Of a DNA stretch of 12,423 nt, positions 1 through 12,423 are shown in pieces (the stretch's first letter is position 1; every line of letters begins with the position of its first letter). The stretch comes from a virus (lineage: Duplodnaviria; Heunggongvirae; Uroviricota; Caudoviricetes): IMG/VR virus record IMGVR_UViG_2778261176_000013, positions 1-12,423 of that record, one strand, 5' to 3'. The notes beneath the pieces were generated by a model. That model was not told the DNA's origin. It worked only from the letters and a program-made list of their open reading frames with translations, and ran no database searches. The position numbers and the translations under genes were made by a program.

Positions 1-342
1 TTAGCCATTCTGATTTTCCTGCATCATGAGAAATACAATCATGGCGGCGCGGAGAGGTCTGGTATCAAATATTGGTCTTACGCCTTTTGCATCAACACAC
101 CATTCAGTTAACTGGTCTAAGATAGAAATCCTGTGTTTCTCAATAATCGGCCATGAGGCGCTAGGATCATTGCAGTAGTCAGGTAAAGGGTTTAATGGCT
201 CAAAAGTTGTATCAGTATTTCCGTAATACCATTTGTTGGTGTTATTCCCTGATGTTTCCGGTTTACATGCCCAAAGGCCTTTAAAAATTATGTCTCCTAC
301 CATTCTGTTAATTTCAAAATCACTTAACTGTGAATAGTCCAT
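1..342 (-). CDS. Hypothetical prophage protein (113 aa)
   Basis: ORF-track frame 1..345. ATG at 342..340 is preceded by AGGAGGTGA and overlaps the TGA stop of the upstream gene (TGATG). Stop TAA at 3..1. No family recognised. Confidence 0.6.
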
Positions 343-944
343 CACTTCACCTCCTGCGGCGGTTCTGGTAGAGGCATCCAGTGGGTTACGAGAACATATT
401 CGACATCACCCTCAGGACTGTCATAGAACAATCCAGAGTGGGATTCGTAGAATGCGATGTAACGCCACCCTGAATGAGTTTGAACAACAACTTCCTGCCC
501 GTCATCCGGCATTCGCTCACTACAGCTTATCCAACCATCCGGAGTTACCGGAGAGTTGCCCGATAGTTTGTTCAACTTGTAAGTCTGGCTTACAGGTTTG
601 GCACCATGAAGCATGGTGGCGCGGCAGGCGTTCCAGCCTTCATCAAAGCCGACTATGCCATTATTTAAAGACGGACGAGCATCTGGCACCACCGGCACTG
701 GCCTGGCTATATATAGCGGCTGAACATACCAGCCCTTTGATAACCAACTGTCAGCAATGTTTTTACTCCTCGTTATTGCCGGAATACCTAAGCCATTTTC
801 TGAATGCAGCCATGCCACCGGCTCCTCTTCTAGCGATGCCAGAGCAATTTCATAAGCCCGGCGCTCAATATTGTCTCGCACGTCCAGGCTGCCTATGCGT
901 TCTTTGATTTCTTTAATCATTTCTTTGTCGGTTAAAGTTGTCAT
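342..944 (-). CDS. DUF551-like prophage protein (200 aa)
   Basis: ATG at 944 with GAGGA 9 nt upstream. C-terminal motif [10 protein letters not shown] matches my recollection of the DUF551 signature; the family label is tentative. Confidence 0.7.
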
Positions 945-947
945 GTG

Positions 948-1235
948 TTAGTCCTCATCCACTTCAACGCCATCTTTCAGCGTGATGCCGTGCCAATCAT
1001 CAGCCCAACTGGTTAGCCCTGGCGCATCAATGCTAGGCATATAAACGCTTGCAGTGTGGTAGCCCTTATCGTTATCAATGCTGGCAACGTGCTCGCCGTT
1101 GTATGCGCTCAGCGTGTCCAGGACGCTATAAAACTTTCCTCCGGCTGCCCTGAAATCCTTTACAGCCTTCACAAGGCGATTCCACGCTTTTTCCTGTTCT
1201 GGCGTCAGGTCGATTAATTCCTGCAAAGTTGCCAT
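948..1235 (-). CDS. Hypothetical prophage protein (95 aa)
   Basis: Start trimmed to ATG at 1235, which has AAGGAGGG directly upstream and lies 1 nt after the TGA stop of the upstream gene (TGATATG). The ORF-track start at 1265 would overlap that gene. Confidence 0.6.
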   Translation of the reverse strand: MATLQELIDLTPEQEKAWNRLVKAVKDFRAAGGKFYSVLDTLSAYNGEHVASIDNDKGYHTASVYMPSIDAPGLTSWADDWHGITLKDGVEVDED

Positions 1236-1236
1236 A

Positions 1237-1965
1237 TCACCCTCCTTTGATGCCAATGCCAGCAAGCCAGTTTCTTATGCCGATATATTCAGCGTTCCTG
1301 AAACCGCCATTTACATATATAAATGGCAAGCGAAGATTGTGACCATTGGCTGCCAGGTAGTCTTTACAACCCTGTTCGGTGAAACAGCAGGTAACGAATT
1401 CATCAATATCTTTCACAGCAACGCGCCGCCATTTTTCTGGTGGTTCCCGAAAGTTTTCATGAAGTAGTTCGAGACGACGACTTTGGCGTTTATTGGCTTC
1501 ATTGCCATCTTCATCAACCCAGACAATCCTGTCATAGTCATAATCAGCATCAACAACGATTTCGCGCTTTTGATACACACAAAACATAGGGTCTGACGTT
1601 ATTCGATTATCCTGTGTTCGAATATTTTCACCGATGATGCCAAACGAATCTGGTGCAGATTTTGTCTTCAACTCTTCGATACGTTTGCTTTGAGCTTCCA
1701 GTTCATCAAGAAGCGCAAGCATGGTAGCCGGACTGGCTGCGGCGATGAATTCAGCATTTGCCTGCTGTTCCATTTGGAAATCTTCATCGAAACCGCTTTC
1801 AGGATGCGCTCCTTCAATTCTGCAAATGGGAATATATCCAGCAGCCTCGCGATGAATTAGCGCATCATCACCATCAAATCGGCCCTCTCCATATTCGAGC
1901 GACCATACACCACACGTTGCTTTCTCTGCCTTTTCACGCAGTGCCTGATAGTCAATCTTGCTCAC
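1237..1965 (-). CDS. ead/Ea22-like family protein (242 aa)
   Basis: Start trimmed to GTG at 1965, with AAGGAGGAAACC upstream and a GTGA overlap with the upstream stop. Protein begins SKIDYQALREKAEKA and contains LALLDELEAQSKRIEELK, which resembles Ea22-type prophage proteins as I recall them. Confidence 0.65.
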   Translation of the reverse strand: MSKIDYQALREKAEKATCGVWSLEYGEGRFDGDDALIHREAAGYIPICRIEGAHPESGFDEDFQMEQQANAEFIAAASPATMLALLDELEAQSKRIEELKTKSAPDSFGIIGENIRTQDNRITSDPMFCVYQKREIVVDADYDYDRIVWVDEDGNEANKRQSRRLELLHENFREPPEKWRRVAVKDIDEFVTCCFTEQGCKDYLAANGHNLRLPFIYVNGGFRNAEYIGIRNWLAGIGIKGG

Positions 1966-2621
1966 TGGTTTCCTCCTTTGCGAAGCTGTTCCGCACAATC
2001 CAGCAGGGCGTCCGTCGCTTCTTTCACCGTAACGATGTCGCCATCGTCCAGCCCGACAACCGTCGCGTTCTTAACGAACACCGAGCAAAGGTCATTAAAC
2101 GCCTGCGCCCGCACTTCAGCCAGGCATTTGCGAAACTCGGAAACGTACTGTTCGACGCTCATTCCCCAGCTAAGTGGACATTCATTGAATGTTTCGCCTT
2201 CGTGCTCTTCATCAGGTAGCTCTTTGGTAAAGAACTCACGTTCAATGGCGTGGAGTGTGTCAGCAAAACGACGTAAGTTACTCAAACCTGTCGTAATGGA
2301 GAATTCAGGAGCATCACATCCGACGCCCATCTGCTGATAAACGGCGGTTTTGAAGGCCTTCAGCCCCGCATTCTCCGCCGCCAACGCCGAAAACTTCTCG
2401 TGTGCCAACTTAACAGCCGCATCAGCCTGCTTAATTGACTCAATCGCTTTCTGCTGGTCTTCGGCCAGCGCATTAGCACGCACCAGTTGCACTTCCAGTT
2501 GCGTTGCCAAATCGCTGATCAGCTTTGCCACACTGCGCATATCAACGGCACCACATTCTGCTTTCAGTTCCGAAGCCATCTCATGCCCGGCGGCAACTAA
2601 CCCTTTGATATTACTTTCCAT
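1962..2621 (-). CDS. Hypothetical coiled-coil prophage protein (219 aa)
   Basis: ATG at 2621 with GAGGGT 5-6 nt upstream. N-terminal half is Ala/Glu/Lys/Gln-rich (coiled-coil-like). Stop overlaps the start of the Ea22-like gene (translational coupling). Confidence 0.65.
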   Translation of the reverse strand: MESNIKGLVAAGHEMASELKAECGAVDMRSVAKLISDLATQLEVQLVRANALAEDQQKAIESIKQADAAVKLAHEKFSALAAENAGLKAFKTAVYQQMGVGCDAPEFSITTGLSNLRRFADTLHAIEREFFTKELPDEEHEGETFNECPLSWGMSVEQYVSEFRKCLAEVRAQAFNDLCSVFVKNATVVGLDDGDIVTVKEATDALLDCAEQLRKGGNQ

Positions 2622-2682
2622 CTTTACCCTCGCTTATCCACATAACTTATTGATTACATTGATAACTAAAAAGATCGTCGAT

Positions 2683-3027
2683 TCAGAACTCTTCGATGTT
2701 CCAGCCACCACCTGTTTTCTTTGGTTTAACCGTTACCCCGATGATTCGGAACGGATACTGATCTGCGGCGACTTTGGTTTTCACCCTGGCGTCGTCGGTC
2801 CAGAAACCTTTCACTTCGTGCAGTTCCATCTCTCCGGTGGCGAGCATCACAGCGAAATCTGGCGTATAGAACGTGTTGTCAGCTAACCGCAGCTTGATAC
2901 CCTCGAATCGATACCAGGCGATTTCCCCTGCACGTTTACGCAGCTCAAGGTGCTGGCAATACGCAGATTCAGTTTTGTTCATCTGGCCTGTTTTGAGTCG
3001 ACCAAGAGCCTGTATCTGTTTTCTCAT
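2683..3027 (-). CDS. DUF1064-like protein with PD-(D/E)xK-type motif (114 aa)
   Basis: ATG at 3027 with GAGGT upstream. Contains YTPDF...ELHEVKG, a PD-x(n)-ExK arrangement typical of restriction-endonuclease-fold nucleases. DUF1064 assignment is from memory. Confidence 0.65.
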   Translation of the reverse strand: MRKQIQALGRLKTGQMNKTESAYCQHLELRKRAGEIAWYRFEGIKLRLADNTFYTPDFAVMLATGEMELHEVKGFWTDDARVKTKVAADQYPFRIIGVTVKPKKTGGGWNIEEF

Positions 3028-3115
3028 GATTTACCTCTGAGGTAATTAAAAACCACATAAGACATGAAATCAATAGAGTTTATAATATTTTGTTACCTAA
3101 CAGGTAATTATCGAG
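3028..3115 (-). promoter_or_regulatory. Second PL-like promoter-operator cassette between the P-like and DUF1064-like genes
   Basis: Minus-strand reading: operator B (3093-3107), 19-bp gap, -35 TTGATT (3073..3068), 17-bp spacer, -10 TTTAAT (3050..3045), operator A (3031-3045) overlapping the -10 and the SD of the gene starting at 3027. Shares CTATTGA and ATTACCTCA with the PL-like region. Confidence 0.5.
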
Positions 3116-3119
3116 GCGT

Positions 3120-3139
3120 AAAAAAATGCGCTATCGCGC
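3120..3139 (-). terminator. Weak tR2-like intrinsic terminator immediately after the P-like gene
   Basis: On the minus strand GCGC-GATA-GCGC, then A, then T7. The stem is only 4 bp. Confidence 0.4.
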
Positions 3140-3144
3140 TGGTA

Positions 3145-3921
3145 TTACTTGATAAATCCTGCCGCCTTTCCCCGCCTGTATTCCTCCATCAGCCACTGCG
3201 CCGGTGTTATTCCCCCAAGGGTGGCGGCGTTAGGCATGCACCCGAAACTTCGCCCTGGTGGATGGTAAACGTCTCTCCCTGTGTCCGGAGGTGTACTCAT
3301 GGGCTCTGGCTTTGCCTGTATGCTGATCACCGGATCGGGTATCTGCTGTCCGGAAGCCACCTTTTTCGCCCAATCATCGAGCAGCCTGCGCGCGTGTTTC
3401 TCAACCTCAATCTCGCTAAGCTGGCGCTGATACATTGCACGGCGGGTATCACATACGACCCAGTACATAACCGGATGTCGCCACGGGAATCTTTCGGGAC
3501 CACCAGGATATAAACTTTTTTCCTTGCTGTACCGGTGAAACTCCGCCATCACATCGTCAATGGTGACGCCAAGAACCATCTTGCTGTCTTTGCACCACTT
3601 GATGAATTGCCCAGGCGACGGCCAGAACGGAGATTCACTGGCGCGGGCGTGGCGCATACCAGCGTTAACCTGTTCCATTGTTGTGATCCCATTCTCCAGA
3701 AACGCAAGCATCCATTGCTTACGGAATTCATTAAGTTTGTTCTGCTCCCTTATGGTCGAAACGCTTGCAGGAAATGCAGCCTGTAACTGGACAAATAGTT
3801 CATTGAAAATTCTAGCAACCTGCTCCTTTTTGCCATTGCTGTCACGCCGCTCTTCATGCACAGCAACACCATGCTCACGTAAGCGATCGTACTCATTGAG
3901 AAGTTCTGGAGTTGATTTCAT
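3145..3921 (-). CDS. Replication protein P-like (DnaB helicase loader)
   Basis: [44 protein letters not shown] closely parallels the lambda P segment [23 protein letters not shown]...PFLPSPGQFVAWC as I recall it. Start overlaps the end of the O-like gene, as in lambda. Confidence 0.85.
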
Positions 3922-4723
3922 CCCACACCCCTTCTATCCAGTCAGTGTTATTCCAGTCAAGCTCATCGCTTTTCCCGGCGTTTTTTGATTTTCCCCTGAT
4001 ATGATTTACGTGCCTGGCGAATTTTTGTTCCCACTGAACCTGCGTGAACACTTTGCCCTCAGCCATCCAGTAATCCCGGAATGCAGCAAGTTCAGCAGGT
4101 GTAAATTCCGGTTCCGGCAGGGCCGTTCCCCACAGCGCAGCACGCCGTCGAAAATCCGGCGACGGATGCCAGCCATCGGTCATCGGAAATTTCCCAATAG
4201 GTTCACTCAGGCCATCCAGAAATGCAGGTTCTGCCACCTGCAACGGCGTACCGTTCGCTTCACTGGTCGGATCACTCTCGCGCGCGTGCGCTATGTGTGG
4301 GGTTTTATATATATCTTCCTCTTCCTCTTCCTCTGGTAACTCCTTTTGTAACGCTGTTGGCGTTACTTTTTGCGTTACTCGTTTTCGATGCTCTGCCACT
4401 CTTCTATTCGTAAGTGCACGTTTTTTCGATGATTCTCCATTATGTCGCTCAAAGTTTGGAAGAATTAGTTTGCCGTCATGATAAGCAAGCCATCCGACGC
4501 TAATGAGGGCGTCAGCAAATCCTGTAATAAAAGCGAGTCTATCAAGTACTCCTTTTGTAACGCTGCCAGCGTTACCGTCTATTGTTTGCTGGTCAGCCCA
4601 TGCCCATATACGAACCAGCTTTCCAAGAACAGCATCTGGATCAATACCCAGAATTTCTGCTATCTGAAAAATTTCAGGTTTATCAGGAGTGATAACTTCA
4701 ACCTTAATCCAGCTGCTTGCCAT
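3893..4723 (-). CDS. Replication initiator / replisome organiser (O-like)
   Basis: Sits immediately upstream of and overlapping the P-like gene. Start trimmed to ATG at 4723 (AGAGGGGAAA SD); the ORF-track GTG at 4741 is less likely. Has an acidic linker (EEEEEED) and contains palindromic iteron-like DNA repeats. Confidence 0.75.
4341..4383. repeat. Iteron-like palindrome cluster inside the O-like gene (candidate origin element)
   Basis: CTCCTTTTGTAACGCTG-TTG-GCGTTAC, then TTTTT-GCGTTAC. Palindrome GTAACGC/GCGTTAC at 4348-4366 plus a third half-site at 4372-4378. Adjacent to (CG)4 at 4281-4288, AT-rich TTTTATATATAT at 4303-4314 and a (CTTCCT)3 repeat. Confidence 0.5.
4560..4585. repeat. Second copy of the iteron-like element inside the O-like gene
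   Basis: TCCTTTTGTAACGCTG-C-CAGCGTTAC; 19-bp perfect palindrome at 4567-4585. The shared 17-nt left arm is identical to the copy at 4341, but the two copies fall in different reading frames of the O-like ORF. Confidence 0.5.
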
Positions 4724-4916
4724 AGGTTTCCCCTCTTGCACTCTTTAGTGCACAAGCAAATTCATTACGATGGCGGTTGGCGCTATTCATTGCACATTCA
4801 ACACATGTTCCGTTCAGAACATACCTTTCAGAGAGATGGCCGTGACGGCACCGCTTTCCTGTGAAATAGCGATTTAACCCGGCTTTTGCGGCCTCCATTC
4901 TGGTTACTATCTTCAA
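4704..4916 (-). CDS. Small zinc-ribbon protein in the cII position (64-70 aa)
   Basis: Cys/His cluster CRHGH...CVEC. Lies between the cro-like and O-like genes. Start is ambiguous: TTG at 4916 (AAGGGG upstream) or ATG at 4898. Overlaps the O-like start by about 20 nt in another frame. Confidence 0.45.
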
Positions 4917-4994
4917 TTTTTCCGCCCCTTTTTGTTATTGATATTGGCTATTTTGCACAATTGGAAAATTTGATCAACCAGATTTGGTTTTTTA

Positions 4995-5009
4995 TTACCT
5001 TTGAGGTAC
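4995..5009. promoter_or_regulatory. Isolated operator-family site downstream of the cro-like gene
   Basis: TTACC-TTTGA-GGTAC (9/10 half-site match). Preceded on the minus strand by CATATCTATT, the same 10-mer found upstream of the PL-like -35. Confidence 0.4.
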
Positions 5010-5019
5010 GAATAGATAT

Positions 5020-5043
5020 GAAAAGACCGCCGGGTGGCGGTCT
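5020..5043 (-). terminator. tR1-like hairpin between the cro-like gene and the cII-position ORF
   Basis: Perfect 8-bp stem AGACCGCC / GGCGGTCT with a 4-nt loop, followed on the minus strand by TTTT then CATATCTATT. Confidence 0.55.
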
Positions 5044-5064
5044 ACAGAGGGTTGTAGCTGGATA

Positions 5065-5295
5065 TCATGAGTAGAAGAAGTATGCCAGTTCTGCTTTTGA
5101 GCGCAGCCATTGTCTTGTTTTACAGGCTTTAAAAAGCCCATTCATCAATACTTTACCTGGCATTTTGCGCTTACCTGTTAAGTGAGTCTGGATATAGTGA
5201 CTCGTCGTTCCGGCTTCCTGTGCGAAGGCTTCACGCTCATCCGGAGTAAGTGCAAGCCAGTGCTTTTTGAAATCGAAATGTCCGTTATCGCTCAT
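5065..5295 (-). CDS. Cro-like HTH DNA-binding protein (76 aa)
   Basis: Small protein divergent from the repressor gene, with an HTH-like segment REAFAQEAGTTSHYIQTHLTGKR. It is the first gene of the operon containing O and P. Confidence 0.65.
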   Translation of the reverse strand: MSDNGHFDFKKHWLALTPDEREAFAQEAGTTSHYIQTHLTGKRKMPGKVLMNGLFKACKTRQWLRSKAELAYFFYS

Positions 5296-5449
5296 AGCTA
5301 TTGCCTGATATTTATTTCAGATAATAAATATTCACCCATAAGGTAACAAAAATCAAGGATAGTTACCCATGAGGTGCATTTACCTGTTGGGTAATATTGC
5401 TTTAAATTGAATCATCTACTGATTCATATATGAGGCGATTTTCCAGAAA
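5296..5449. promoter_or_regulatory. Divergent repressor/cro control region (OR-like) with three operator-type sites
   Basis: Three sites of the ATTACC-N5-GGTAAT family: 5332-5346 (TCACC-CATAA-GGTAA, 9/10), 5363-5377 (TTACC-CATGA-GGTGC, 8/10), 5380-5394 (TTACC-TGTTG-GGTAA, perfect). Candidate minus-strand promoter: -35 TTGTTA 5349..5344, -10 TATTAT 5326..5321. Confidence 0.6.
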
Positions 5450-6034
5450 ATGAAAAGTATCCAGGACGTCCGCAGGCAAAATCTCAACGACTTGATCGAC
5501 CGTGAATTCAATGGTGTTCAGACGCGGATGGCAGAAAAACTTGGAACTCAGGCAAATCTGGTAAACCGCTGGGCTCTTGGCAAGAAGGTTATCGGCGACC
5601 AGGTTGCGCGAAAAATTGAAGCTGCCGCCAATAAACCACGTAACTGGCTTGATATCGATCGCTCGCTTTCTCAGGAAGGTTTTCAGCCTGTCGGCCCAAG
5701 CGACATTGGTCAGCTGGCGGCTCACAACCTGGAACGCTGGATGAGCGAAAGCCGCGACCTTTCAACTCAGGGAAAACTTCACCGCGCATCCGGCGTCGCC
5801 CAGGTGACAATCAGCCGCCTGTTAAACAATGAGGTCAGTGTTTCCATTTCCACCCTGGAGAATGTTGCATCAGCATTCGGGCGTCACGGCTATGAATTAC
5901 TGATTCACCCGCACGACCCTGCGACCATCAACTATGACCGCTCGCGCTACGCATTGTTACCCGAAACCGAGAAAGCAAAGATCGAAAGTTACATTGAATT
6001 TGTCATCAACCAGAACGAAAAAAACAAACAATAA
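5450..6034 (+). CDS. CI-like immunity repressor with two HTH domains and no S24 peptidase domain (194 aa)
   Basis: Two XRE-type HTH segments (GVQTRMAEKLGTQANLVNRW and ASGVAQVTISRLLNNEVSVSISTLENVASAF). No Ser/Lys autopeptidase region recognisable. Divergent from cro across an operator-rich intergenic region and followed by a strong intrinsic terminator. Confidence 0.7.
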   Translation: MKSIQDVRRQNLNDLIDREFNGVQTRMAEKLGTQANLVNRWALGKKVIGDQVARKIEAAANKPRNWLDIDRSLSQEGFQPVGPSDIGQLAAHNLERWMSESRDLSTQGKLHRASGVAQVTISRLLNNEVSVSISTLENVASAFGRHGYELLIHPHDPATINYDRSRYALLPETEKAKIESYIEFVINQNEKNKQ

Positions 6035-6055
6035 AATCATATTTTTCAGTAAGTA

Positions 6056-6078
6056 AGCCGCCTTCTGGCGGCTTTTTT
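6056..6078 (+). terminator. Intrinsic terminator downstream of the CI-like repressor gene
   Basis: AGCCGCC-TTCT-GGCGGCT stem-loop followed by a T6 tract. Confidence 0.75.
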
Positions 6079-6084
6079 ATTGCC

Positions 6085-6187
6085 TATACTATTACCTAAT
6101 GGGTAATTTTTTTAACTCATATCTATTGACACCAAACCAAATACGCATAATTATTACCTCAACGGTAACAGACCGAGGTAACAAGTT
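6085..6187 (+). promoter_or_regulatory. PL-like early promoter flanked by two perfect operators
   Basis: -35 TTGACA at 6126-6131, with a -10-like CATAATTA at 6146-6153. Operator G (6092-6106) lies 19 bp upstream of -35; operator H (6154-6168) abuts the -10 and covers the likely start site. Confidence 0.6.
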
Positions 6188-6340
6188 ATGCAGTGGAAAA
6201 TCATCAACGGTTGGTACTGCGTTACTGCATGCGGATTCATGAGCTGGAAGTTCCGCACCTTACAGGAAGGCATTAAGTGGGCTTTCGTCAGCAAAGAAGC
6301 TCGCGATGTGGCCAACGATAACGAGATATGGGAGGGCTGA
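6188..6340 (+). CDS. Hypothetical Trp-rich small protein (50 aa), first gene of the PL-like operon; not in the supplied ORF track
   Basis: ATG at 6188 with GAGG 9 nt upstream, 20 nt after operator H. Hand translation: MQWKIINGWYCVTACGFMSWKFRTLQEGIKWAFVSKEARDVANDNEIWEG. Stop TGA at 6338-6340, 2 nt before the next ATG. Confidence 0.45.
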   Translation: MQWKIINGWYCVTACGFMSWKFRTLQEGIKWAFVSKEARDVANDNEIWEG

Positions 6341-6342
6341 TA

Positions 6343-6642
6343 ATGAACGTTAATCAGCAGAAAAATCTTCAAAAAATCATGCTGGCATTCGACAAGGACT
6401 ACCGCCTGTCAGAACAGCTATATGACCGACAAGTTGAACTGATCGAGAGCATCCGGCTTCATCAACTAGCCTCAACTTTCGACGCTGTAACAGGTAAAGG
6501 CGTTCGCCAGGAAGTACTGGAGGCCGCTAAAGACAGTCCAGAGTTCGAAGAACTGATGGATTCCTACCGGCGCGAGGCAATGGCAATTATCGCCCGCTGG
6601 GATCTGGCGGATCAGCTTGATGGACAGAGGGACGCGGCATGA
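6343..6642 (+). CDS. Hypothetical protein (99 aa) in the Gam/RacC position upstream of the exonuclease
   Basis: ATG at 6343 preceded by GGGAGGG. Stop overlaps the exonuclease start (ATGA). No family recognised. Confidence 0.6.
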   Translation: MNVNQQKNLQKIMLAFDKDYRLSEQLYDRQVELIESIRLHQLASTFDAVTGKGVRQEVLEAAKDSPEFEELMDSYRREAMAIIARWDLADQLDGQRDAA

Positions 6643-7538
6643 TGCGGAACGCTGGAATCATGGATAGAACAAAATACATCGGAGGAAGCGATGTTGCAGG
6701 GATTCTTGGAATTAGCCCATGGCGCACCCCGCTTGAGGTTTATCTGGATAAGGTCCAGCCACGTGTCAAACCAGTAGACCCAAGCAAGCAGAAAGTTTTC
6801 ACGCGTGGCCAGCGTATGGAGCCATACGTAATAGACCTGCTTTCTGAGGAAACAGGGATGGAAATCGTTCATCGCGGAAACCGCTATATCCACCGTGATT
6901 ACGATTTTATTGCAGCTGAGATCGATGCAGAAGCAGCGTCAGGCGAGAACATTGAGATCAAAACAGTTAGTCCGTTCAAAGCCAAAGAATGGGGAGAAAT
7001 CCAGACAGATGCAATTCCTGTGCATTACACGGCCCAGGCCATGCACGGGTTGATGGTTACAAACAAACAGGTATGCGTTTTCGGTGTGCTTATCGGTGGC
7101 GACGACTTCCGAATCTATCGGGTTGAGCGTGATGAAGAAACTATCCAGGCGATCTTAGAAAAAGAAATCGCTTTCTGGGACCGAGTGAAAAATCTTAACC
7201 CGCCGGAAGCTACCAGCGTAAGCGATGTATCGCTGATGTTTGAGAAAGATGCCGGGACAAGTATCGAGGCTGACGGAAAGGCACTCTCACTATTCAACGA
7301 TCTACGAGACATGAAGTCACGCAGAAAATTACTGGAAGAAGAAATAGCTATATCAGAAGAGAAGCTGAAGATGTACATGCAAGAGCACTCAGTCCTGACC
7401 CTAGACGGAAAGCCGCTCTGCACATGGAAATCTCAGATCAGCAACAGATTCGACCAGAAGCTATTCCAGTCAGTACACCCTGAGTTATTCGAAAAATTCA
7501 AAACAACAACGACACAACGCGTCTTCAGAATGAAGTAA
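6639..7538 (+). CDS. YqaJ-type phage exonuclease (RecE/Red-alpha functional analogue)
   Basis: N-terminal KYIGGSDVAGILGISPWRTPLEVY is the hallmark of YqaJ-like viral recombinase exonucleases. Immediately upstream of recT. Confidence 0.85.
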   Translation: MMRNAGIMDRTKYIGGSDVAGILGISPWRTPLEVYLDKVQPRVKPVDPSKQKVFTRGQRMEPYVIDLLSEETGMEIVHRGNRYIHRDYDFIAAEIDAEAASGENIEIKTVSPFKAKEWGEIQTDAIPVHYTAQAMHGLMVTNKQVCVFGVLIGGDDFRIYRVERDEETIQAILEKEIAFWDRVKNLNPPEATSVSDVSLMFEKDAGTSIEADGKALSLFNDLRDMKSRRKLLEEEIAISEEKLKMYMQEHSVLTLDGKPLCTWKSQISNRFDQKLFQSVHPELFEKFKTTTTQRVFRMK

Positions 7539-7547
7539 GGAGAAAAA

Positions 7548-8570
7548 ATGTCTATCAATGCACTTAAGGCAGCAGCTACCGGTAACCAAGTTGCACATCA
7601 TAATGAGAAACCAACAACTCTGGCCGGACTTCTGGCAGACCCAAAAATTAAAGCTCAGATGGCTTTGGCACTTCCAAAGCACATGACAGCAGACCGTCTG
7701 GCGCGCATAGCAACCACAGAGATCCGAAAGGTTCCAAAACTTGCATCATGCGACCAAGCCAGCTTCCTGGGGGCAATTATGCAATGTGCCCAATTGGGTC
7801 TTGAACCAGGCGGAGCTCTTGGACACGCTTACCTGATACCGTTCGACAAACGCCAGAAAGTAAATGGAAGATGGGAAACCGTATCTACAGAAGCACAGCT
7901 GATTATCGGCTATCGCGGAATGATTGACCTTGCCCGCCGCTCTGGGCAGATCCTGAGTATCTCAGCTCGTACCGTACATACAAACGACAAATTCAGCTAC
8001 TCATACGGCATGGAAGAAACGCTCGAGCATTTACCTTGCGAAACAGGTGACCGCGGAGAATTAACACACGTTTACGCCGTTGCACGACTGAAAGATGGCG
8101 GAGTCCAATTTGAAGTTATGAGCCGGGCAGCCGTTGAGAAAGTTCGTGCACTGAGCAAAGCCGGTAGCAGTGGCCCATGGGTTGATCACTTCGATGAGAT
8201 GGCTAAAAAAACAGTAATTCGCCGACTGTTCAAATATCTTCCTGTTTCTATTGAAATGCAGAAGGCTGTTGTTATGGATGAGCGCGCTGAAGCTGGACTT
8301 AGCCAAGATAACGCAGCTGTTATCACTGGTGAATATTCCGTAGTTGACGATGAGCGTCAACACCTATCGCCAATTTCAGATTCAGAACGAGAAGAAGCTC
8401 GAGAATATATCATCGCGATACTTAATAGCCTGGATCCATCTGCTGAAGATGCAAAAACGATGTTCAAGCGCGCTGAAAATGAAATTAACACCATGGCTGA
8501 AAAGCTCGGTGATGAATATCACCAAAAATTCATGATGACGCTTAACGATATGCGTCCAGAATTCGAGTAA
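7548..8570 (+). CDS. recT: RecT single-strand annealing recombinase
   Basis: AAGGAG SD. Long stretches match Rac RecT as I recall it: LPKHMTADRLARIATTEIRKVPKL, QLIIGYRGMIDLARRSGQI, THVYAVARLKDGG.QFEVM, EMAKKT.IRRLFKYLPVSIE. Confidence 0.92.
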   Translation: MSINALKAAATGNQVAHHNEKPTTLAGLLADPKIKAQMALALPKHMTADRLARIATTEIRKVPKLASCDQASFLGAIMQCAQLGLEPGGALGHAYLIPFDKRQKVNGRWETVSTEAQLIIGYRGMIDLARRSGQILSISARTVHTNDKFSYSYGMEETLEHLPCETGDRGELTHVYAVARLKDGGVQFEVMSRAAVEKVRALSKAGSSGPWVDHFDEMAKKTVIRRLFKYLPVSIEMQKAVVMDERAEAGLSQDNAAVITGEYSVVDDERQHLSPISDSEREEAREYIIAILNSLDPSAEDAKTMFKRAENEINTMAEKLGDEYHQKFMMTLNDMRPEFE

Positions 8571-8619
8571 CCACCACCGCGGCGCCACGTGCGCCTCACT
8601 GCAACCAAGAGAGGTATTC

Positions 8620-8868
8620 ATGAAAGGTGCATTAGGTAAGAAAGAACTCCTGGCGGTGGTGCCACTGTCATGGAGCACTATCGACCGTATGGAGCGCGCA
8701 GGGGAATTTCCTAAACGCTGGTATATCACCGATAAACGCTGCGCATGGAACCGTGACGAAGTTGAGCGTTGGCTTGATGAACGTCAGGCAGCAAGCCCGG
8801 CAGAGTTCCAGGGTAAAAAGCCTCCTGTTCAGCAACGTGTATATCGTCCTGTGAGCAACGCTGCATGA
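8620..8868 (+). CDS. AlpA/Xis-family small DNA-binding protein (excisionase-like regulator)
   Basis: AGAGAGG SD. Motif SWSTIDRMERAGEFPKRWYITDKRCAWNRDEVERWL resembles AlpA/excisionase winged-helix proteins. Confidence 0.7.
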   Translation: MKGALGKKELLAVVPLSWSTIDRMERAGEFPKRWYITDKRCAWNRDEVERWLDERQAASPAEFQGKKPPVQQRVYRPVSNAA

Positions 8869-8977
8869 GTGCGCTGCTAAGGCACTGGAGCAAATGGTCA
8901 GGATGGTACTTATTCCTGGCCTCTGTTTCAGCATGGCTTTATCTGCTGGCATTAATTTTCAGAGAGGGTTGGATTAA

Positions 8978-9277
8978 GTGAGAAAGTTAAGCCGACTTGA
9001 AAAATATCACATGAACAAGGTTTCAATGCGCAGTCCGTCAAAGATTGTCGCCGTTACTCCTGCGGCGATAGAGATCGAAAAACGCGCGATTGAAAGAGAG
9101 AAAAAAGGGCAGTTCCGCATTGCCGCTCACCTTTGGCTTCAGTGTATGGATGTTGCTTCTGGTGATGTTGAGCGTGCAAGGATCGCGGTTCGCAGGGACC
9201 AATGTATCACAAAAGGTAACGGCCTTCGCCGTGGCGACTATAGCGGCATAGGATGTTGTGGGGTGGTTTATGACTAA
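8978..9277 (+). CDS. PerC-like putative transcriptional regulator (99 aa; start uncertain)
   Basis: GTG at 8978 preceded by AGAGAGGG; internal ATGs at 9011 and 9026 are alternatives. RIAAHLWLQCMDVASGDVERARIAVRRDQC resembles the PerC-family pattern. Overlaps the methyltransferase start. Confidence 0.45.
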   Translation: MRKLSRLEKYHMNKVSMRSPSKIVAVTPAAIEIEKRAIEREKKGQFRIAAHLWLQCMDVASGDVERARIAVRRDQCITKGNGLRRGDYSGIGCCGVVYD

Positions 9278-9920
9278 GAAATACACACTAATCTATGCAG
9301 ATCCACCCTGGGTATACCGGGACAAAGCCGCAGATGGTAATCGCGGTGCCGGTTTTAAATATCCGGTTATGAGTGTGCTGGACATCTGCCGCCTTCCTGT
9401 GTGGGATTTGGCCGATGAAAACTGTCTGTTGGCCATGTGGTGGGTGCCAACACAACCACTCGAAGCACTAAAAGTTATTGAAGCCTGGGGATTCCGTCTG
9501 ATGACCATGAAGGGATTCACGTGGATAAAATGTGGTAGTCGACAACCAGATAAACTGGTTATGGGTATGGGTCACATGACTCGCGCCAATAGTGAAGATT
9601 GCCTGTTTGCGGTAAAGGGAAAACTACCTCCGCGCATTAATGCAGGGATCGTTCAGTCATTTACCGCACCGCGACTTGAGCATTCAAGAAAACCAGATGT
9701 CGTTCGTGAAAAACTTGTGCAATTGTTAGGCGATGTTTCTCGCATTGAACTGTTCGCCCGCCAGTCGTCTCATGGCTTCGATGTTTGGGGTAATCAGTGC
9801 GAAGACCCGGCAGTGCAACTACACCCTGGATACGCGTTGGATATTGGCGGATTAACAAATGCATTCAGCAATTCTCCGCTGTCACCAACAGACAACCAGG
9901 GGCGGGAGCGTGCAGCATGA
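9270..9920 (+). CDS. MT-A70-family DNA N6-adenine methyltransferase (orphan, no adjacent restriction enzyme)
   Basis: N-terminal YTLIYADPPWVY carries the DPPW catalytic motif. ATG at 9270 (GTG at 9258 is an alternative). Stop overlaps the start of the next ORF (ATGA). Confidence 0.8.
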   Translation: MTKKYTLIYADPPWVYRDKAADGNRGAGFKYPVMSVLDICRLPVWDLADENCLLAMWWVPTQPLEALKVIEAWGFRLMTMKGFTWIKCGSRQPDKLVMGMGHMTRANSEDCLFAVKGKLPPRINAGIVQSFTAPRLEHSRKPDVVREKLVQLLGDVSRIELFARQSSHGFDVWGNQCEDPAVQLHPGYALDIGGLTNAFSNSPLSPTDNQGRERAA

Positions 9921-10165
9921 AGCAGATTATGGTTGCACACAACGGCGTCAGGTTTGAAGTCGTCATGGTTTTGACTAAGTTCCACAATGATGAGGTATTG
10001 CACAGAAAAGAAACTGTAACTTACCGTTATAAACACCGCAGTTCAGCTGTTAGAAAATTACGGAAGATTGCGGAAGAACTAAAAAATGATCCTCATCGTG
10101 TTATTGAGGTAAAAGGCAACCCATATAAAATCAAAACTTCAGTGGAGCTAAGACATATGCAATAA
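9917..10165 (+). CDS. Hypothetical basic protein (82 aa), coupled to the methyltransferase
   Basis: ATG at 9917 overlaps the methyltransferase stop, with GGGAGCG upstream. Lys/Arg-rich. Followed by a 324-bp intergenic region with a terminator-like element. Confidence 0.5.
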   Translation: MKQIMVAHNGVRFEVVMVLTKFHNDEVLHRKETVTYRYKHRSSAVRKLRKIAEELKNDPHRVIEVKGNPYKIKTSVELRHMQ

Positions 10166-10296
10166 AATCACGCCTGACGAATCGCGATTATCTCGCTATT
10201 GGTATTGCAGAGATTGCTGGACTCAATGGCGCATGATTTGACAATGCCGCCAGAGCTATCGCATACTGACCGCACTAGAAAACAAACAGCGGTCAT

Positions 10297-10324
10297 CCGC
10301 ACCCGATAGCTTTGCGGCTTTTTT
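10297..10324 (+). terminator. Possible intrinsic terminator after the methyltransferase operon
   Basis: CCGCA ... TGCGG stem (5 bp) with an 11-nt loop, followed by C and a T6 tract. Confidence 0.35.
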
Positions 10325-10409
10325 ATGCCTGCAATCTGGCATAGTCACATCCGTACAAAGGTCGGGTGGAGAGGCGTAATACAACACCCGAAAGGGGAAT
10401 ATGCCCGGA

Positions 10410-10489
10410 GCTACTGTTTGTGCTCTAGTTGACACCCGATCACCAGTTACTAACTGGTTTTCGTAACTAAAAACAAACAGGAGGTCATC
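10410..10489 (+). promoter_or_regulatory. Antirepressor upstream region with TTGACA hexamer and a 15-bp perfect palindrome
   Basis: TTGACA at 10429-10434. Perfect palindrome CCAGTTA-C-TAACTGG at 10443-10457. No convincing -10 hexamer found by eye. Confidence 0.4.
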
Positions 10490-11140
10490 ATGACCAGTCA
10501 ACTCATCCCCGTATTCAACGGCACTATATCCAACGAAACCGCTCTTCTCGTTAATGCCCGTGATTTACACACTTTCCTCGATGTGGGTAAGCGATTTGCT
10601 TCGTGGATTGTCGAACGAATTGCTGAATATGGTTTCGTTGAAAATCAAGACTTTATGATTATTTCCCAAGTTCGGGAAAAAATAGGCAGAGGCCGTCCTG
10701 CAAAAGACTACCACCTCACCCTCGATACAGCCAAAGAGCTGGCGATGGTCGAGCGTAATGAAAAAGGTCGTCAGGTACGACGCTACTTCATTGAATGCGA
10801 GAAACGTTTAAGACAACAAGAAACAAAAGTGGAGAAGGTCTTGTCAGGCTTCATGCCCGCCATTATGGAGGCGATCAAGCTGGAAGACAAAAAAGAATAC
10901 AGTGCCCCACTGAAGCCCGGCTACCGCAGCCTGATTCACTCGCCGTCTGGTGTTCTCGGCCTGACGGAGAACTCACTGCTGATGAATCTGCTGAACCAGT
11001 TACAGGAAGACGGGCACGACGTATCGGGTGCGGCGGCGGAGCTGACCACCATGTTCTGCTACATCGTCGGTGTGAGCAAATGCCTGCGTGATATCCAGAC
11101 CCACGCGGAGTACATCAACGACAAGGCAGGGTTCTTCTGA
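10490..11140 (+). CDS. Phage antirepressor, AntA/AntB N-terminal domain type (216 aa)
   Basis: AGGAGG 7 nt upstream of ATG. N-terminal region (LIPVFNGT...ARDLHTFLDVGKRFASWIVERIAEYGFVENQDF...KDYHLTLDTAKELAMVERNEKGRQVRRYF) matches AntA/AntB antirepressor domains as I recall them. Confidence 0.75.
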   Translation: MTSQLIPVFNGTISNETALLVNARDLHTFLDVGKRFASWIVERIAEYGFVENQDFMIISQVREKIGRGRPAKDYHLTLDTAKELAMVERNEKGRQVRRYFIECEKRLRQQETKVEKVLSGFMPAIMEAIKLEDKKEYSAPLKPGYRSLIHSPSGVLGLTENSLLMNLLNQLQEDGHDVSGAAAELTTMFCYIVGVSKCLRDIQTHAEYINDKAGFF

Positions 11141-11172
11141 CGGGCGGCGGCACATGGATGTGTCGGGCAAAA

Positions 11173-12423
11173 TTATTCCCCCGCCATCCACTTCTCAAAC
11201 TTCGACGGGGAGAACGGAATCAGATCCGTATGCTCCCCGTCAATCCATGAATCAATCATATCGGCCCACTGCTGCAACATGTAGGCGCGCTGTCTGGCGT
11301 ATTCCGCTTTGTTGTATACGGCGCGCACACCTTTCTGCTCATGTGCCAGAGCCTTTTCAATCCAGTCTGAAGGATAACCAGCCTCATGCAACAACGTACT
11401 GGCTGTACGGCGCATATCATGTACAGTGAAGTCCTGAATATGCTCACCATCTTCATTTATTATTTTCACCGTTCTGTCGATCAGAGAGTTCAGCGCGGCA
11501 TTAGATAATGGCTTCCGGAAATTGTAACGACCAGGAACCAGATATTCACTTCCACCAGCGCACATCTGCAACCCGACCAATATATCCTGTGCCTGTTTAG
11601 GCAGGTAAATAACGTGCGCCCGGCTTCCCTTCATGCGGTCTGGAGGAATTGTCCATGTCCATTTTTTAAAATCTATTTCATCCCACGTTGCATTGGTGAA
11701 TTCGCCCTTACGAACCATAGTGATAAGCACCAGTTTTAAAGCCATTTTCATAGTGCCCATAGCACCAATGGCATCCAGCGTGCGGAAGAACAGGCCAATT
11801 TCTTCTGGTGTCAGTGTTCGCTCTCGTGGTTTAAATATGGCGATAGACGAAGGTTTAATGTCAGCCGCAGGATTAAACAAACCATGACCACGGTCATTGG
11901 CGTGACGGTATACGCTACTGATGATCTCCCTGGCCTGCACTGCTGTTGCCCGGCCACCGCGTTCGACAATCCGGTCACACAAATCACGAACCATCGATGT
12001 GGTAATTTCAGCCATCATTTTATTGCCAAGAACCGGAAGTATGTCACGGTCGATCACCGCCTGTTTCATTGCGCGGGTACTGTCAGCCAGGATGACGTGT
12101 TTCATATAACTGTCGGTATGTACCGCAAACGTCTCGGCACCACGAATCTTTTTGATACCGTCACGTTTAGCCGCAGCCGGTGACTGGCCTGCTTTAAGCA
12201 GCTTCTTTGCAGCAATCAGTTCTTCTCGCGCTTCTGCCAGGCTGATACCGTCACGCCCATACTGCCCGATTACCAGTGTTTCGCGGCGACCGTTGATACG
12301 GTAGTCATAGCGAAACGAGACCGTGCCTGACGTAAGCACAGCTACATACAGCCCGTCACGATCGGAGACCTTGTACAGTTTGTCCTGCGGCTTGAGGTTT
12401 TTTAATTTTGTATCGGTAAGCAC
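11173..12423 (-). CDS. Tyrosine integrase, P4-type (N-terminus truncated by window edge)
   Basis: N-terminal LTDTKLKNLKP...YKVSDRDGLYVAVLTSGTVSFRYDYRINGRRETL is typical of P4-like integrases. C-terminal catalytic region has HDMRRT and AHEQKGVRAVYNKAEY (conserved Tyr). The ORF runs to the last base of the window. Confidence 0.9.
   Translation of the reverse strand: MLTDTKLKNLKPQDKLYKVSDRDGLYVAVLTSGTVSFRYDYRINGRRETLVIGQYGRDGISLAEAREELIAAKKLLKAGQSPAAAKRDGIKKIRGAETFAVHTDSYMKHVILADSTRAMKQAVIDRDILPVLGNKMMAEITTSMVRDLCDRIVERGGRATAVQAREIISSVYRHANDRGHGLFNPAADIKPSSIAIFKPRERTLTPEEIGLFFRTLDAIGAMGTMKMALKLVLITMVRKGEFTNATWDEIDFKKWTWTIPPDRMKGSRAHVIYLPKQAQDILVGLQMCAGGSEYLVPGRYNFRKPLSNAALNSLIDRTVKIINEDGEHIQDFTVHDMRRTASTLLHEAGYPSDWIEKALAHEQKGVRAVYNKAEYARQRAYMLQQWADMIDSWIDGEHTDLIPFSPSKFEKWMAGE

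Follow-up and report, generated by a model that had tools for sequence, protein, structure and literature searches.

We analysed a stretch of DNA of 12,423 nucleotides (positions 1 to 12,423 of the IMG/VR virus record IMGVR_UViG_2778261176_000013; hereafter the window), which contains the early region and the integrase gene of a phiV10/epsilon15-like (Uetakevirus) prophage of Escherichia coli. Our subject is the gene in the CI position of this early region, here called rep, and the way in which its product, a protein of 194 amino acids, may be inactivated upon prophage induction. A first-pass annotation of the same DNA had placed an immunity repressor there. Indeed, the open reading frame (ORF) is present, it is divergent from a Cro-like gene, and operator palindromes lie between the two genes. 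Farther to the right, beside the tyrosine integrase gene int, lies antA, which encodes a protein with an AntA domain and is preceded by a structured RNA. The coordinates of these features are collected in Table 1. As judged from homology, Rep is an immunity repressor of the type found in the Salmonella phage SPC32H, which is inactivated by a small protein, Ant. The antA gene is a candidate for a second antirepressor controlled by RNA.

Rep is homologous to the repressor of SPC32H

Rep is 100% identical to p40 of phiV10, a protein annotated as "putative transcriptional repressor", and the GenBank note on p40 already records "two helix-turn-helix motifs". In a phmmer search of PDB sequences, residues 1-190 of Rep aligned to residues 2-197 of 5D50_A, a full-length match (expectation value (E) 4e-42). 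PDB entry 5D50 holds the SPC32H "Repressor" together with its antirepressor, and 5D4Z, which was also matched by Rep, holds the C-terminal half of that repressor. Overall identity to the Rep proteins of SPC32H and epsilon15 is 42-43%; the epsilon15 homologue, gp38, is annotated as 'repressor' in its GenBank record. The order of modules is that of SPC32H Rep, as the alignment spans all three of them (55% identity over residues 1-62, 32% over residues 85-152 and 43% over residues 153-194) and the structural model described below has two bundles followed by a tail. The NLVNRW stretch of the N-terminal helix-turn-helix (HTH) is conserved between the two proteins.

According to secondary descriptions, SPC32H Rep is made of an N-terminal DNA-binding domain, a middle dimerisation domain (MDD) and a C-terminal CAD. 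The CAD is a p53-like TetDloop that both makes tetramers and binds Ant. The same descriptions have the Rep tetramer bind DNA, and tetrameric Ant bind two Rep dimers and thereby break the tetramer. In the SOS response, self-cleavage of LexA leads to production of the antirepressor, which inhibits the repressor by protein-protein contact. No other repressor family of this phage group is reported to be inactivated by an antirepressor. The SPC32H Rep-Ant system is said to have been described by Kim & Ryu in 2013 and by Kim et al. in 2016, and Kropinski et al. in 2007 reportedly listed the major repressor of epsilon15 among genes identified experimentally.

Two HTH folds, a conserved tail and no S24 domain

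The first-pass annotation had seen two XRE-type HTH segments in Rep, and profile searches, structure prediction and fold comparison all agree with it. The whole protein matched the Pfam family HTH_3 (E 1.2e-9) over two stretches, the better of which covers residues 106-147. When scanned alone, residues 83-194 matched HTH_3 (E 1.2e-5; 25.7 bits, the cut-off being 23 bits) and HTH_26 (E 2.5e-5), and the second HTH domain also gave a weak match to LacI-type HTH. The N-terminal HTH is the weaker sequence match of the two: residues 1-79 alone matched a YdaS/Cro-like HTH (E 4e-4) and HTH_3 (E 0.012), both under the curated cut-offs and both within residues 21-67.

The AlphaFold2 model of Rep (built from 32 homologues; mean predicted local distance difference test 73.6) has two separate all-helical bundles, at residues 4-59 and 85-151. 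The first is made of helices 4-19, 24-31, 35-43 and 50-59, and the second, taken as residues 85-152, of five helices; they are followed by a tail that ends in a long helix (residues 172-193). In a Foldseek comparison of this model with the PDB the top matches were SPC32H Rep itself (5D50_A and 5D4Z; template modelling (TM) score 0.81 on the C-terminal half). Further matches were XRE-type HTH folds, for example SinR, ClgR, DdrO and HigA, and HTH proteins were the only kind of protein matched. The two HTH domains aligned to each other had no detectable similarity, and an internal duplication as their origin was rejected because the sequences do not align.

While the two HTH folds of the first-pass description stood, that description had missed a third conserved module at residues ~153-194. 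In this tail, I160, Y162, D163, L170, P171 and F184 are invariant or near-invariant across 32 homologues. Its other observation, that Rep has nothing like the Ser-Lys peptidase of LexA or CI, was borne out. No Peptidase_S24 or LexA-like domain was found at E up to 10, either in the whole protein or in its split halves, and the S24 Pfam domain is recorded in none of 86 Rep homologues, nearly all of which are 190-200 amino acids long. As Rep has no S24 domain, we propose that it is inactivated by stoichiometric binding of Ant and not by RecA-stimulated self-cleavage.

By analogy with SPC32H Rep, residues 1-62 are presumed to be the DNA-binding domain. The second HTH is probably the counterpart of the dimerisation domain, which makes it doubtful that Rep has two DNA-binding domains, and the tail (residues 153-194) appears to be the counterpart of the module for tetramerisation and Ant docking. 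The SPC32H work and the phiV10 annotation thus largely explain the repressor already.

Operators

The palindrome TTACC-N5-GGTAA occurs in the window at seven sites with at most one mismatch, compared with 0.21 expected from shuffled sequences. The site at 5363-5377 is an eighth copy with two mismatches, and completes a cluster of three between rep and the Cro-like gene, a homologue of phiV10 p41 and epsilon15 gp39. A minus-strand promoter-like site (5349-5321) overlaps this cluster. A second pair of operators stands downstream of rep, at the promoter-like site of the early operon, and a third, distal pair is made of perfect copies. The epsilon15 annotation has repressor sites at the position equivalent to the second pair, and one downstream of the replication genes, in the place equivalent to the distal pair. 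The core of the operators in the window is also that of the four repressor-binding sites annotated in epsilon15, and of the SPC32H sites. The operators support the CI-like role of Rep, and the set is consistent with a single kind of HTH recognising a single kind of half-site.

One further palindrome of this kind (4995-5009) lies just upstream of the terminator region of the Cro-like gene. With a tetrameric repressor, this site and the distal palindromes (3031-3107) could allow DNA looping. Between the E. coli and the Salmonella phages both the operator core and the NLVNRW stretch are conserved despite the 42% identity of Rep, and the small Ant is ~88% identical. Given this conservation of core and NLVNRW, immunity specificity may reside in the spacer or flanking bases of the operators or in the oligomerisation domains.

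A small ant with a LexA box in the relatives

The annotated ant gene of SPC32H encodes 86 amino acids, lies beside the tailspike gene at ~14 kb from rep, and is preceded by TACTGTATGTTTATACAGTG. In the relatives the small Ant is of 85-86 amino acids. A perfect LexA box (CTGT-N8-ACAG) stands 22-23 nucleotides upstream of its start in SPC32H, in two complete E. coli prophages and in phiV10. Indeed, a small ant with a LexA box was present beside the tailspike gene in every complete relative examined. Among 50,697 phage records, the Ant domain was found in 34-35 and Rep homologues in 37; the 35 records that match Ant comprise 31 at 80-100% identity and four from Klebsiella phages at 63-66%. Among the matches listed, all Ant-positive records were also Rep-positive; the two sets are essentially the same.

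In prophage orientation, the region of the small ant lies beyond the left end of the window. Since the relatives carry the gene with its LexA box, phiV10 with its identical Rep among them, the SOS-linked route most likely exists outside the window. From these sequence comparisons, the SOS inducer of this phage group is most likely the small, LexA-repressed Ant. The antirepressor route proposed by the first-pass annotation is, thus, right for this family, as the SPC32H Rep-Ant structure (5D50) illustrates, but its choice of the AntA protein as primary inducer was not supported.

Perfect palindromes of the Rep-operator kind flank the small ant in SPC32H and in the two E. coli prophages; in relatives, such sites are at 20013 (L003), 39260 and 39641 (L004) and 38322 (L005). 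Given this arrangement, Rep may also repress promoters in the ant/tailspike intergenic region.

Some ORFs within the window were considered as candidates for a small Ant and set aside. Those at 6188-6340 and 6328-6642, downstream of rep, were dropped since the SPC32H ant was found beside the tailspike gene. The 82-amino-acid ORF at 9918-10165 (MKQIMVAHNG...) occupies the site between the methyltransferase gene and the antA cassette at which phiV10 carries a DUF1382 gene. It was rejected because nothing in the PDB matched it significantly; the longer reading that contains it (9797-10162) had only weak Pfam matches, with E > 0.05.

The AntA-Ant fusion gene

The AntA protein (216 amino acids) differs from the single-domain Ant of ~86 amino acids in carrying an extra AntA domain. 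Its residues 135-211 matched the Ant chain of SPC32H (5D50_E) with E 5.4e-14, and in BLASTP showed 38% identity to SPC32H Ant. The two domains together suggest that the product is a fusion of an AntA N-terminal domain with an Ant-like domain, and a credible binder of Rep; from the sequence, such binding is plausible. In the phage collection the Ant-like domain of this protein was found only in 34 records of this phage group. The leader and the AntA N-domain (10230-10804) are ~84% identical in nucleotides to antirepressor genes of Stx1 and Stx2 phages, which carry other C-terminal domains. These data fit a modular antirepressor, in which a common RNA-gated N-terminal cassette is joined to a phage-specific target-binding domain.

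The first-pass annotation had called antA the obvious candidate for the inducer. The homology of its C-terminal domain to SPC32H Ant is in favour of this, but no LexA box (CTGT-N8-ACAG with at most one mismatch) and no Rep operator was found in the 10160-10490 region upstream of the gene; the sole perfect CTGT-N8-ACAG of the window, at 1372, is within a coding region. The cassette is also scarce: the int-proximal stretch that includes it aligned over at least 80% of its length in only 23 of 933 matching E. coli genomes, and it is absent at this site from phiV10, the phage with the identical Rep.

The closest complete relative has three Ant-domain genes, for a small Ant, a Bro-N-Ant fusion and an AntA-Ant fusion. 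Prophages of the group have up to three such genes (for example at 37342-38625 and 3408-4058 in L005, and at 1795-3044 in L086). In the relatives, isrK and C4 RNAs precede the Bro-N-Ant fusion, and sRNA-Xcc1 precedes the AntA-Ant fusion. A frameshift appears to have split the Bro-N-Ant gene of phiV10 into p23 and p22.

A structured RNA in the antA leader

The leader of antA contains a match to the Rfam family sRNA-Xcc1 (RF02221) over the full length of its model. The RNA has an outer stem, two hairpins and a 3' CACCA, and its folding energy has a z-score of -3.95. The loop of its second hairpin, CUGUUUGU (10414-10421), is a perfect 8-nucleotide complement of the target ACAAACAG; the target in turn overlaps the antA Shine-Dalgarno sequence. 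Farther upstream, a hairpin displays the target in its loop a second time, in the same sense. By its position this hairpin, here called the decoy, is equivalent to IsrK or to the a1b1 sites of P1.

We compared the leaders of 80 related IMG/VR loci, which gave 40 distinct leaders in 16 sequence classes. Because the MAFFT alignment of the leaders was out of register in the variable loops, cognate pairs of loop and target were compared with non-cognate ones, and a permutation test was made. Complementarity of at least 7 nucleotides was found for 20 of 22 distinct cognate variants (91%), compared with 6.7% of non-cognate pairs, and none of 20,000 permutations across the 16 classes reached the observed total of complementarity. 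The decoy copy is present in 15 of the 16 classes, where it changes along with the target. Loop, ribosome-binding site target and decoy thus covary across the classes.

These results bear on the promoter and palindrome that the first-pass annotation had ascribed to antA, neither of which survived as a control element in DNA. They are, respectively, within and at the 3' end of the sRNA-Xcc1 RNA. The reading of TTGACA at 10429 as a promoter with the palindrome as its operator was rejected because the hexamer is part of the outer stem, which is conserved in this RNA, and because the palindrome shows the covariation of a hairpin, with compensatory changes across related loci (CCAG/CTGG, CCAC/GTGG, CCCTG/CAGGG); nor did a consensus scan find a promoter there.

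The covariance model of C4 (RF01695) had no match in 10150-10560 at E up to 10. Other antA and bro loci, including that of phiV10, have at the same position an Rfam C4 preceded by isrK. As to sRNA-Xcc1 itself, a homologue is abundant and has low ribosome coverage in enterohaemorrhagic E. coli EDL933, the family, which is widely annotated, has been discussed in the literature as a virulence-linked trans-acting small RNA, and it has been noted upstream of an ORF6N-domain gene in APSE phages. No link between sRNA-Xcc1 and c4-like control was found in the searchable literature. The RNA-gated second antirepressor may, on this sequence evidence, be the only new element of the system.

Table 1. Positions of the features described, in coordinates of the window
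Feature	Position	Strand	Basis or remark
Immunity repressor gene rep, SPC32H-Rep-type	5450..6034	+	ATG start, 194 amino acids plus stop
Rep residues 1-62, N-terminal HTH, presumed DNA-binding domain	5450..5635	+	HTH matches, AlphaFold2 helices, homology
Rep residues 85-152, second XRE-type HTH fold, similar to SPC32H Rep MDD	5702..5905	+	HTH_3, AlphaFold2, Foldseek
Rep residues 153-194, C-terminal tail, similar to SPC32H Rep CAD/TetDloop	5906..6031	+	Conservation, homology
Intrinsic terminator of rep	6055..6074	+	Also annotated as terminator in phiV10
Cro-like gene, 76 amino acids, divergent from rep	5065..5295	-	phrog_35 'transcriptional repressor', E 5.6e-13
Operator cluster between Cro-like gene and rep	5332-5346, 5363-5377, 5380-5394 (5332..5394)		TTACC-N5-GGTAA palindromes
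Second operator pair	6092-6106, 6154-6168 (6092..6168)		Brackets promoter-like site 6126-6154 for early operon downstream of rep
Distal perfect operator-like palindromes	3031-3045, 3093-3107		Between P-like replication gene and DUF1064 gene
AntA-Ant fusion gene antA, 216 amino acids	10490..11140	+	Intact ORF, strong Shine-Dalgarno sequence
AntA domain (PF08346), residues 21-90	10550-10759	+	Pfam 97.2 bits (gathering threshold 27), E 8e-28
Ant-like domain, residues 135-211	10892-11122	+	Matches residues 3-79 of Ant chain 5D50_E
Promoter-like site TTGACA-18-CATACT, start of antA leader	10238..10267	+	10 of 12 consensus positions; consensus match only
Decoy hairpin, loop with same-sense ACAAACAG at 10282-10289, then terminator-like hairpin and U-run	10268..10324	+	Fold
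Structured RNA, Rfam sRNA-Xcc1 (RF02221)	10360..10449	+	65.2 bits (gathering threshold 53), E 3e-10, model positions 1-87 of 87
Palindrome, an RNA hairpin (10442-10458) of 7 base pairs with loop ACU, then UUUU	10442..10461	+	3' end of sRNA-Xcc1 RNA
Target ACAAACAG (10473-10480), overlapping antA Shine-Dalgarno AGGAGG (10479-10484)	10473..10484	+	Complements loop of hairpin 2

The window and its relatives

To the left of rep and the Cro-like gene, the ORF map and family profile matches place DnaT-like and P-like replication genes. To the right of rep follow genes for an exonuclease, RecT, an AlpA-like protein, a PerC-like protein and a methyltransferase, and then antA and int. The exonuclease (299 amino acids) and RecT (340 amino acids) are encoded by two genes in the window (6639-8570) and in epsilon15; at the equivalent site the phiV10 record has a single ORF annotated as a RecE-RecT fusion. 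A weak match to RyhB at 6022-6080 (E 0.65) was rejected, being merely the rep terminator.

The central 1.4 kb of the window, which contains the repressor region, is carried at 95% identity or more by ~560 of 5426 complete E. coli genomes. The complete relatives are prophages adjoining guaA. Over 9700-12423 the closest match was E. coli isolate A357, at 99.3% identity.

Discussion

From the homologies, the domain folds, the operators, the LexA boxes of the relatives and the RNA covariation, we infer the following binding events, absence of cleavage and regulatory outcomes for this phage. The N-terminal HTH of Rep would bind the TTACC-N5-GGTAA operators at the divergent Cro-like promoter and at the early promoter downstream of rep. 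Dimerisation would be the task of the second, HTH-like domain, and the C-terminal tail would assemble tetramers, which would hold the early promoters closed, and would also offer the docking surface for antirepressors. Upon DNA damage LexA would be stripped from the promoter of the small ant, an input taken from the relatives, and small Ant would bind the tail of Rep, which would then leave the DNA uncleaved. The AntA-Ant fusion would be a second, accessory antirepressor. The c4-like sRNA-Xcc1 RNA in antA's own leader probably blocks its translation, through pairing of the loop with the ribosome-binding site, and the protein would be freed when this RNA is titrated by the decoy or is mismatched. 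It may serve anti-immunity or prophage cross-talk rather than SOS induction.

Taken as a whole, the explanation that a Rep of SPC32H type is inactivated by Ant, with a small LexA-controlled ant as its source and an RNA-gated AntA-Ant as accessory, seems to us probable. For its most specific part, namely that the int-proximal cassette (10238-11140) is a P1 immI-type second immunity region in a podovirus, in which the sRNA-Xcc1 RNA pairs its loop with the Shine-Dalgarno sequence and a decoy lies upstream, we judge the balance to be about even.

Several points weigh against this explanation. For non-cleavage and Ant binding we rely on a homologue with only 42% overall identity (middle domain 32%, tail 43%), whose domain roles we took from secondary descriptions. 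The AlphaFold2 model of Rep is of moderate confidence (predicted TM score 0.41) and is poor at residues 157-164. The small ant lies past the end of the window and so was seen in relatives only. As the C-terminal domain of the AntA protein is only 38% identical to SPC32H Ant, its target could be another repressor. Lastly, the leader RNA matches RF02221 and not the C4 model.

The AntA protein could instead be the main inducer, expressed after DNA damage from an operator-controlled promoter of its own and inactivating Rep, as the first-pass annotation had it. In favour of this, the protein shares homology in its C-terminal domain with SPC32H Ant, which binds Rep, its ORF is intact with a strong Shine-Dalgarno sequence, and no small ant is visible in the window. 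However, neither a LexA box nor a Rep operator precedes antA, the palindrome acts as an RNA hairpin with compensatory changes, and the TTGACA at 10429 is inside a conserved RNA. Moreover, the stretch with the cassette is rare (23 of 933 genomes, compared with ~560 that have the repressor region) and missing from phiV10, while the LexA-box small ant is in all complete relatives examined. This makes a role as main inducer unlikely. There is somewhat more room for the AntA-Ant fusion as an anti-immunity or cross-talk factor, like those of P1 or P22 immI, which would not act on the Rep of its own prophage during induction. Its expression would follow infection of a cell in which the resident c4-like RNA differs in its loop, and it would then inactivate the Rep proteins of related prophages residing there. 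The order of decoy, antisense RNA and ant is the architecture of P1 immI, at least 15 loop specificities among close relatives suggest diversifying immunity classes, the closest relative has three Ant-domain genes in one prophage, and the phiV10 authors annotated the Bro-N paralogue as 'putative anti-immunity protein'. Such a role would be deduced purely by analogy, and we consider it possible, though not the likelier outcome; it is compatible with the explanation that we prefer rather than exclusive of it.

Two other alternatives concern Rep itself. If both HTH domains bound DNA, the operator would be bipartite and each dimer would present four HTH units. It is true that the second domain is the better HTH_3 match, above the Pfam cut-off, and has a weak LacI-type match. 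However, its equivalent in the solved homologue is described as a dimerisation domain, with DNA binding assigned to the N-terminal domain, and each operator is a simple palindrome of 15 bp, built from half-sites of one type. In addition, identity to SPC32H Rep is highest in the N-terminal domain (55%) and lowest in the second (32%), whereas the phages of E. coli and Salmonella share the same operator core. Binding of DNA by both domains is, thus, very unlikely. Hardly any credence can be given to the idea that Rep is destroyed after DNA damage without an S24 domain, for example by a host or phage protease, antirepressors being irrelevant. The homologue was crystallised with Ant (5D50), Ant-mediated inactivation is reported by secondary sources, and the Ant domain strictly co-occurs with the Rep family in phage genomes.

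Our view of the repressor itself changes little, since the structure of this kind of switch is already known from a Salmonella relative. The preferred explanation, Ant-inactivated Rep, is of use for annotation: the "helix-turn-helix domain-containing proteins" of this kind in ~560 complete E. coli genomes would be Rep-type immunity repressors, whose induction should depend on Ant proteins and not on RecA-stimulated cleavage. If the RNA gate on antA is real, the sRNA-Xcc1 family gains a concrete function, as a c4-like translational gate for antirepressors, and there would be at least 15 classes of loop specificity (heteroimmunity) among enterobacterial prophages. Two inputs would then converge on one non-cleavable repressor, the SOS signal by way of LexA and the small Ant, and an RNA-specificity signal by way of the RNA-gated AntA-Ant fusion.

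Comparison with known systems

Rep shares with lambda CI the N-terminal XRE-type HTH, the CI position and the divergent promoters with multiple operators. Unlike CI and LexA it lacks the S24 Ser-Lys peptidase, and it would oligomerise, by analogy with SPC32H Rep, via an HTH-like domain and a short tail. Inactivation of a non-cleavable repressor by a LexA-repressed antirepressor is known from the Gifsy and Fels-2 antirepressors and from Tum of coliphage 186. The folds of repressor and antirepressor are unrelated to those considered here, and sequence similarity was not detected.

In the immI region of P1 and P7, the c4 RNA blocks translation of the antirepressor operon (icd-ant). The leader RNA of antA resembles c4 in being an RNA of ~80-90 nucleotides with an outer stem, two hairpins and a CCA-like 3' end, located upstream of ant in the same transcription unit. 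It also resembles c4 in having a loop complementary to the ribosome-binding region, with a copy of the target upstream and with specificity set by the loop sequence. It differs from c4 in belonging to RF02221 and not to RF01695, in having only one varying loop, and in its target, which is the Shine-Dalgarno sequence of ant itself, without an upstream ORF like icd. In addition, the phage of the window is a podovirus with a different repressor. In the isrK-orf45-anrP region of Gifsy-1, the short IsrK activates in trans a read-through transcript that is otherwise translationally silent (Hershko-Shalev et al. 2016). The likeness here is in a short, terminated small RNA followed by a silent read-through transcript with an antirepressor-like gene, and isrK and C4 are present in sister loci. 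In contrast to Gifsy-1, the window has no Rfam match to isrK, so that its decoy hairpin is alike by position and logic only, and an orf45-like coupling ORF was not identified in it.

Among close relatives, phiV10 has in p40 a protein identical to Rep. It differs in having a DUF1382 gene in place of the 82-amino-acid ORF and the antA cassette of the window, and in its fused Ant paralogue, which is of the Bro-N type, adjoins the small ant and has isrK and C4 RNAs ahead of it. In the epsilon15 record, the repressor binding sites that are marked have the core seen in the window. The Rep-Ant system of SPC32H differs from that of the window in that the two Rep proteins are 42% identical and the host of the window's phage is E. 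coli. It also differs in that the Ant-like domain of the window is fused to AntA, adjoins int, has no LexA box and lies behind a structured RNA leader, whereas SPC32H itself has the small Ant alone. Yet the two phages are of the same genus and their Rep proteins are homologous over their full length, with the same three-module order, the same TTACC-N5-GGTAA core and no S24 domain; an Ant-homologous domain is encoded in the window, and the window's relatives, like SPC32H, have an ant gene with a LexA box beside the tailspike gene.

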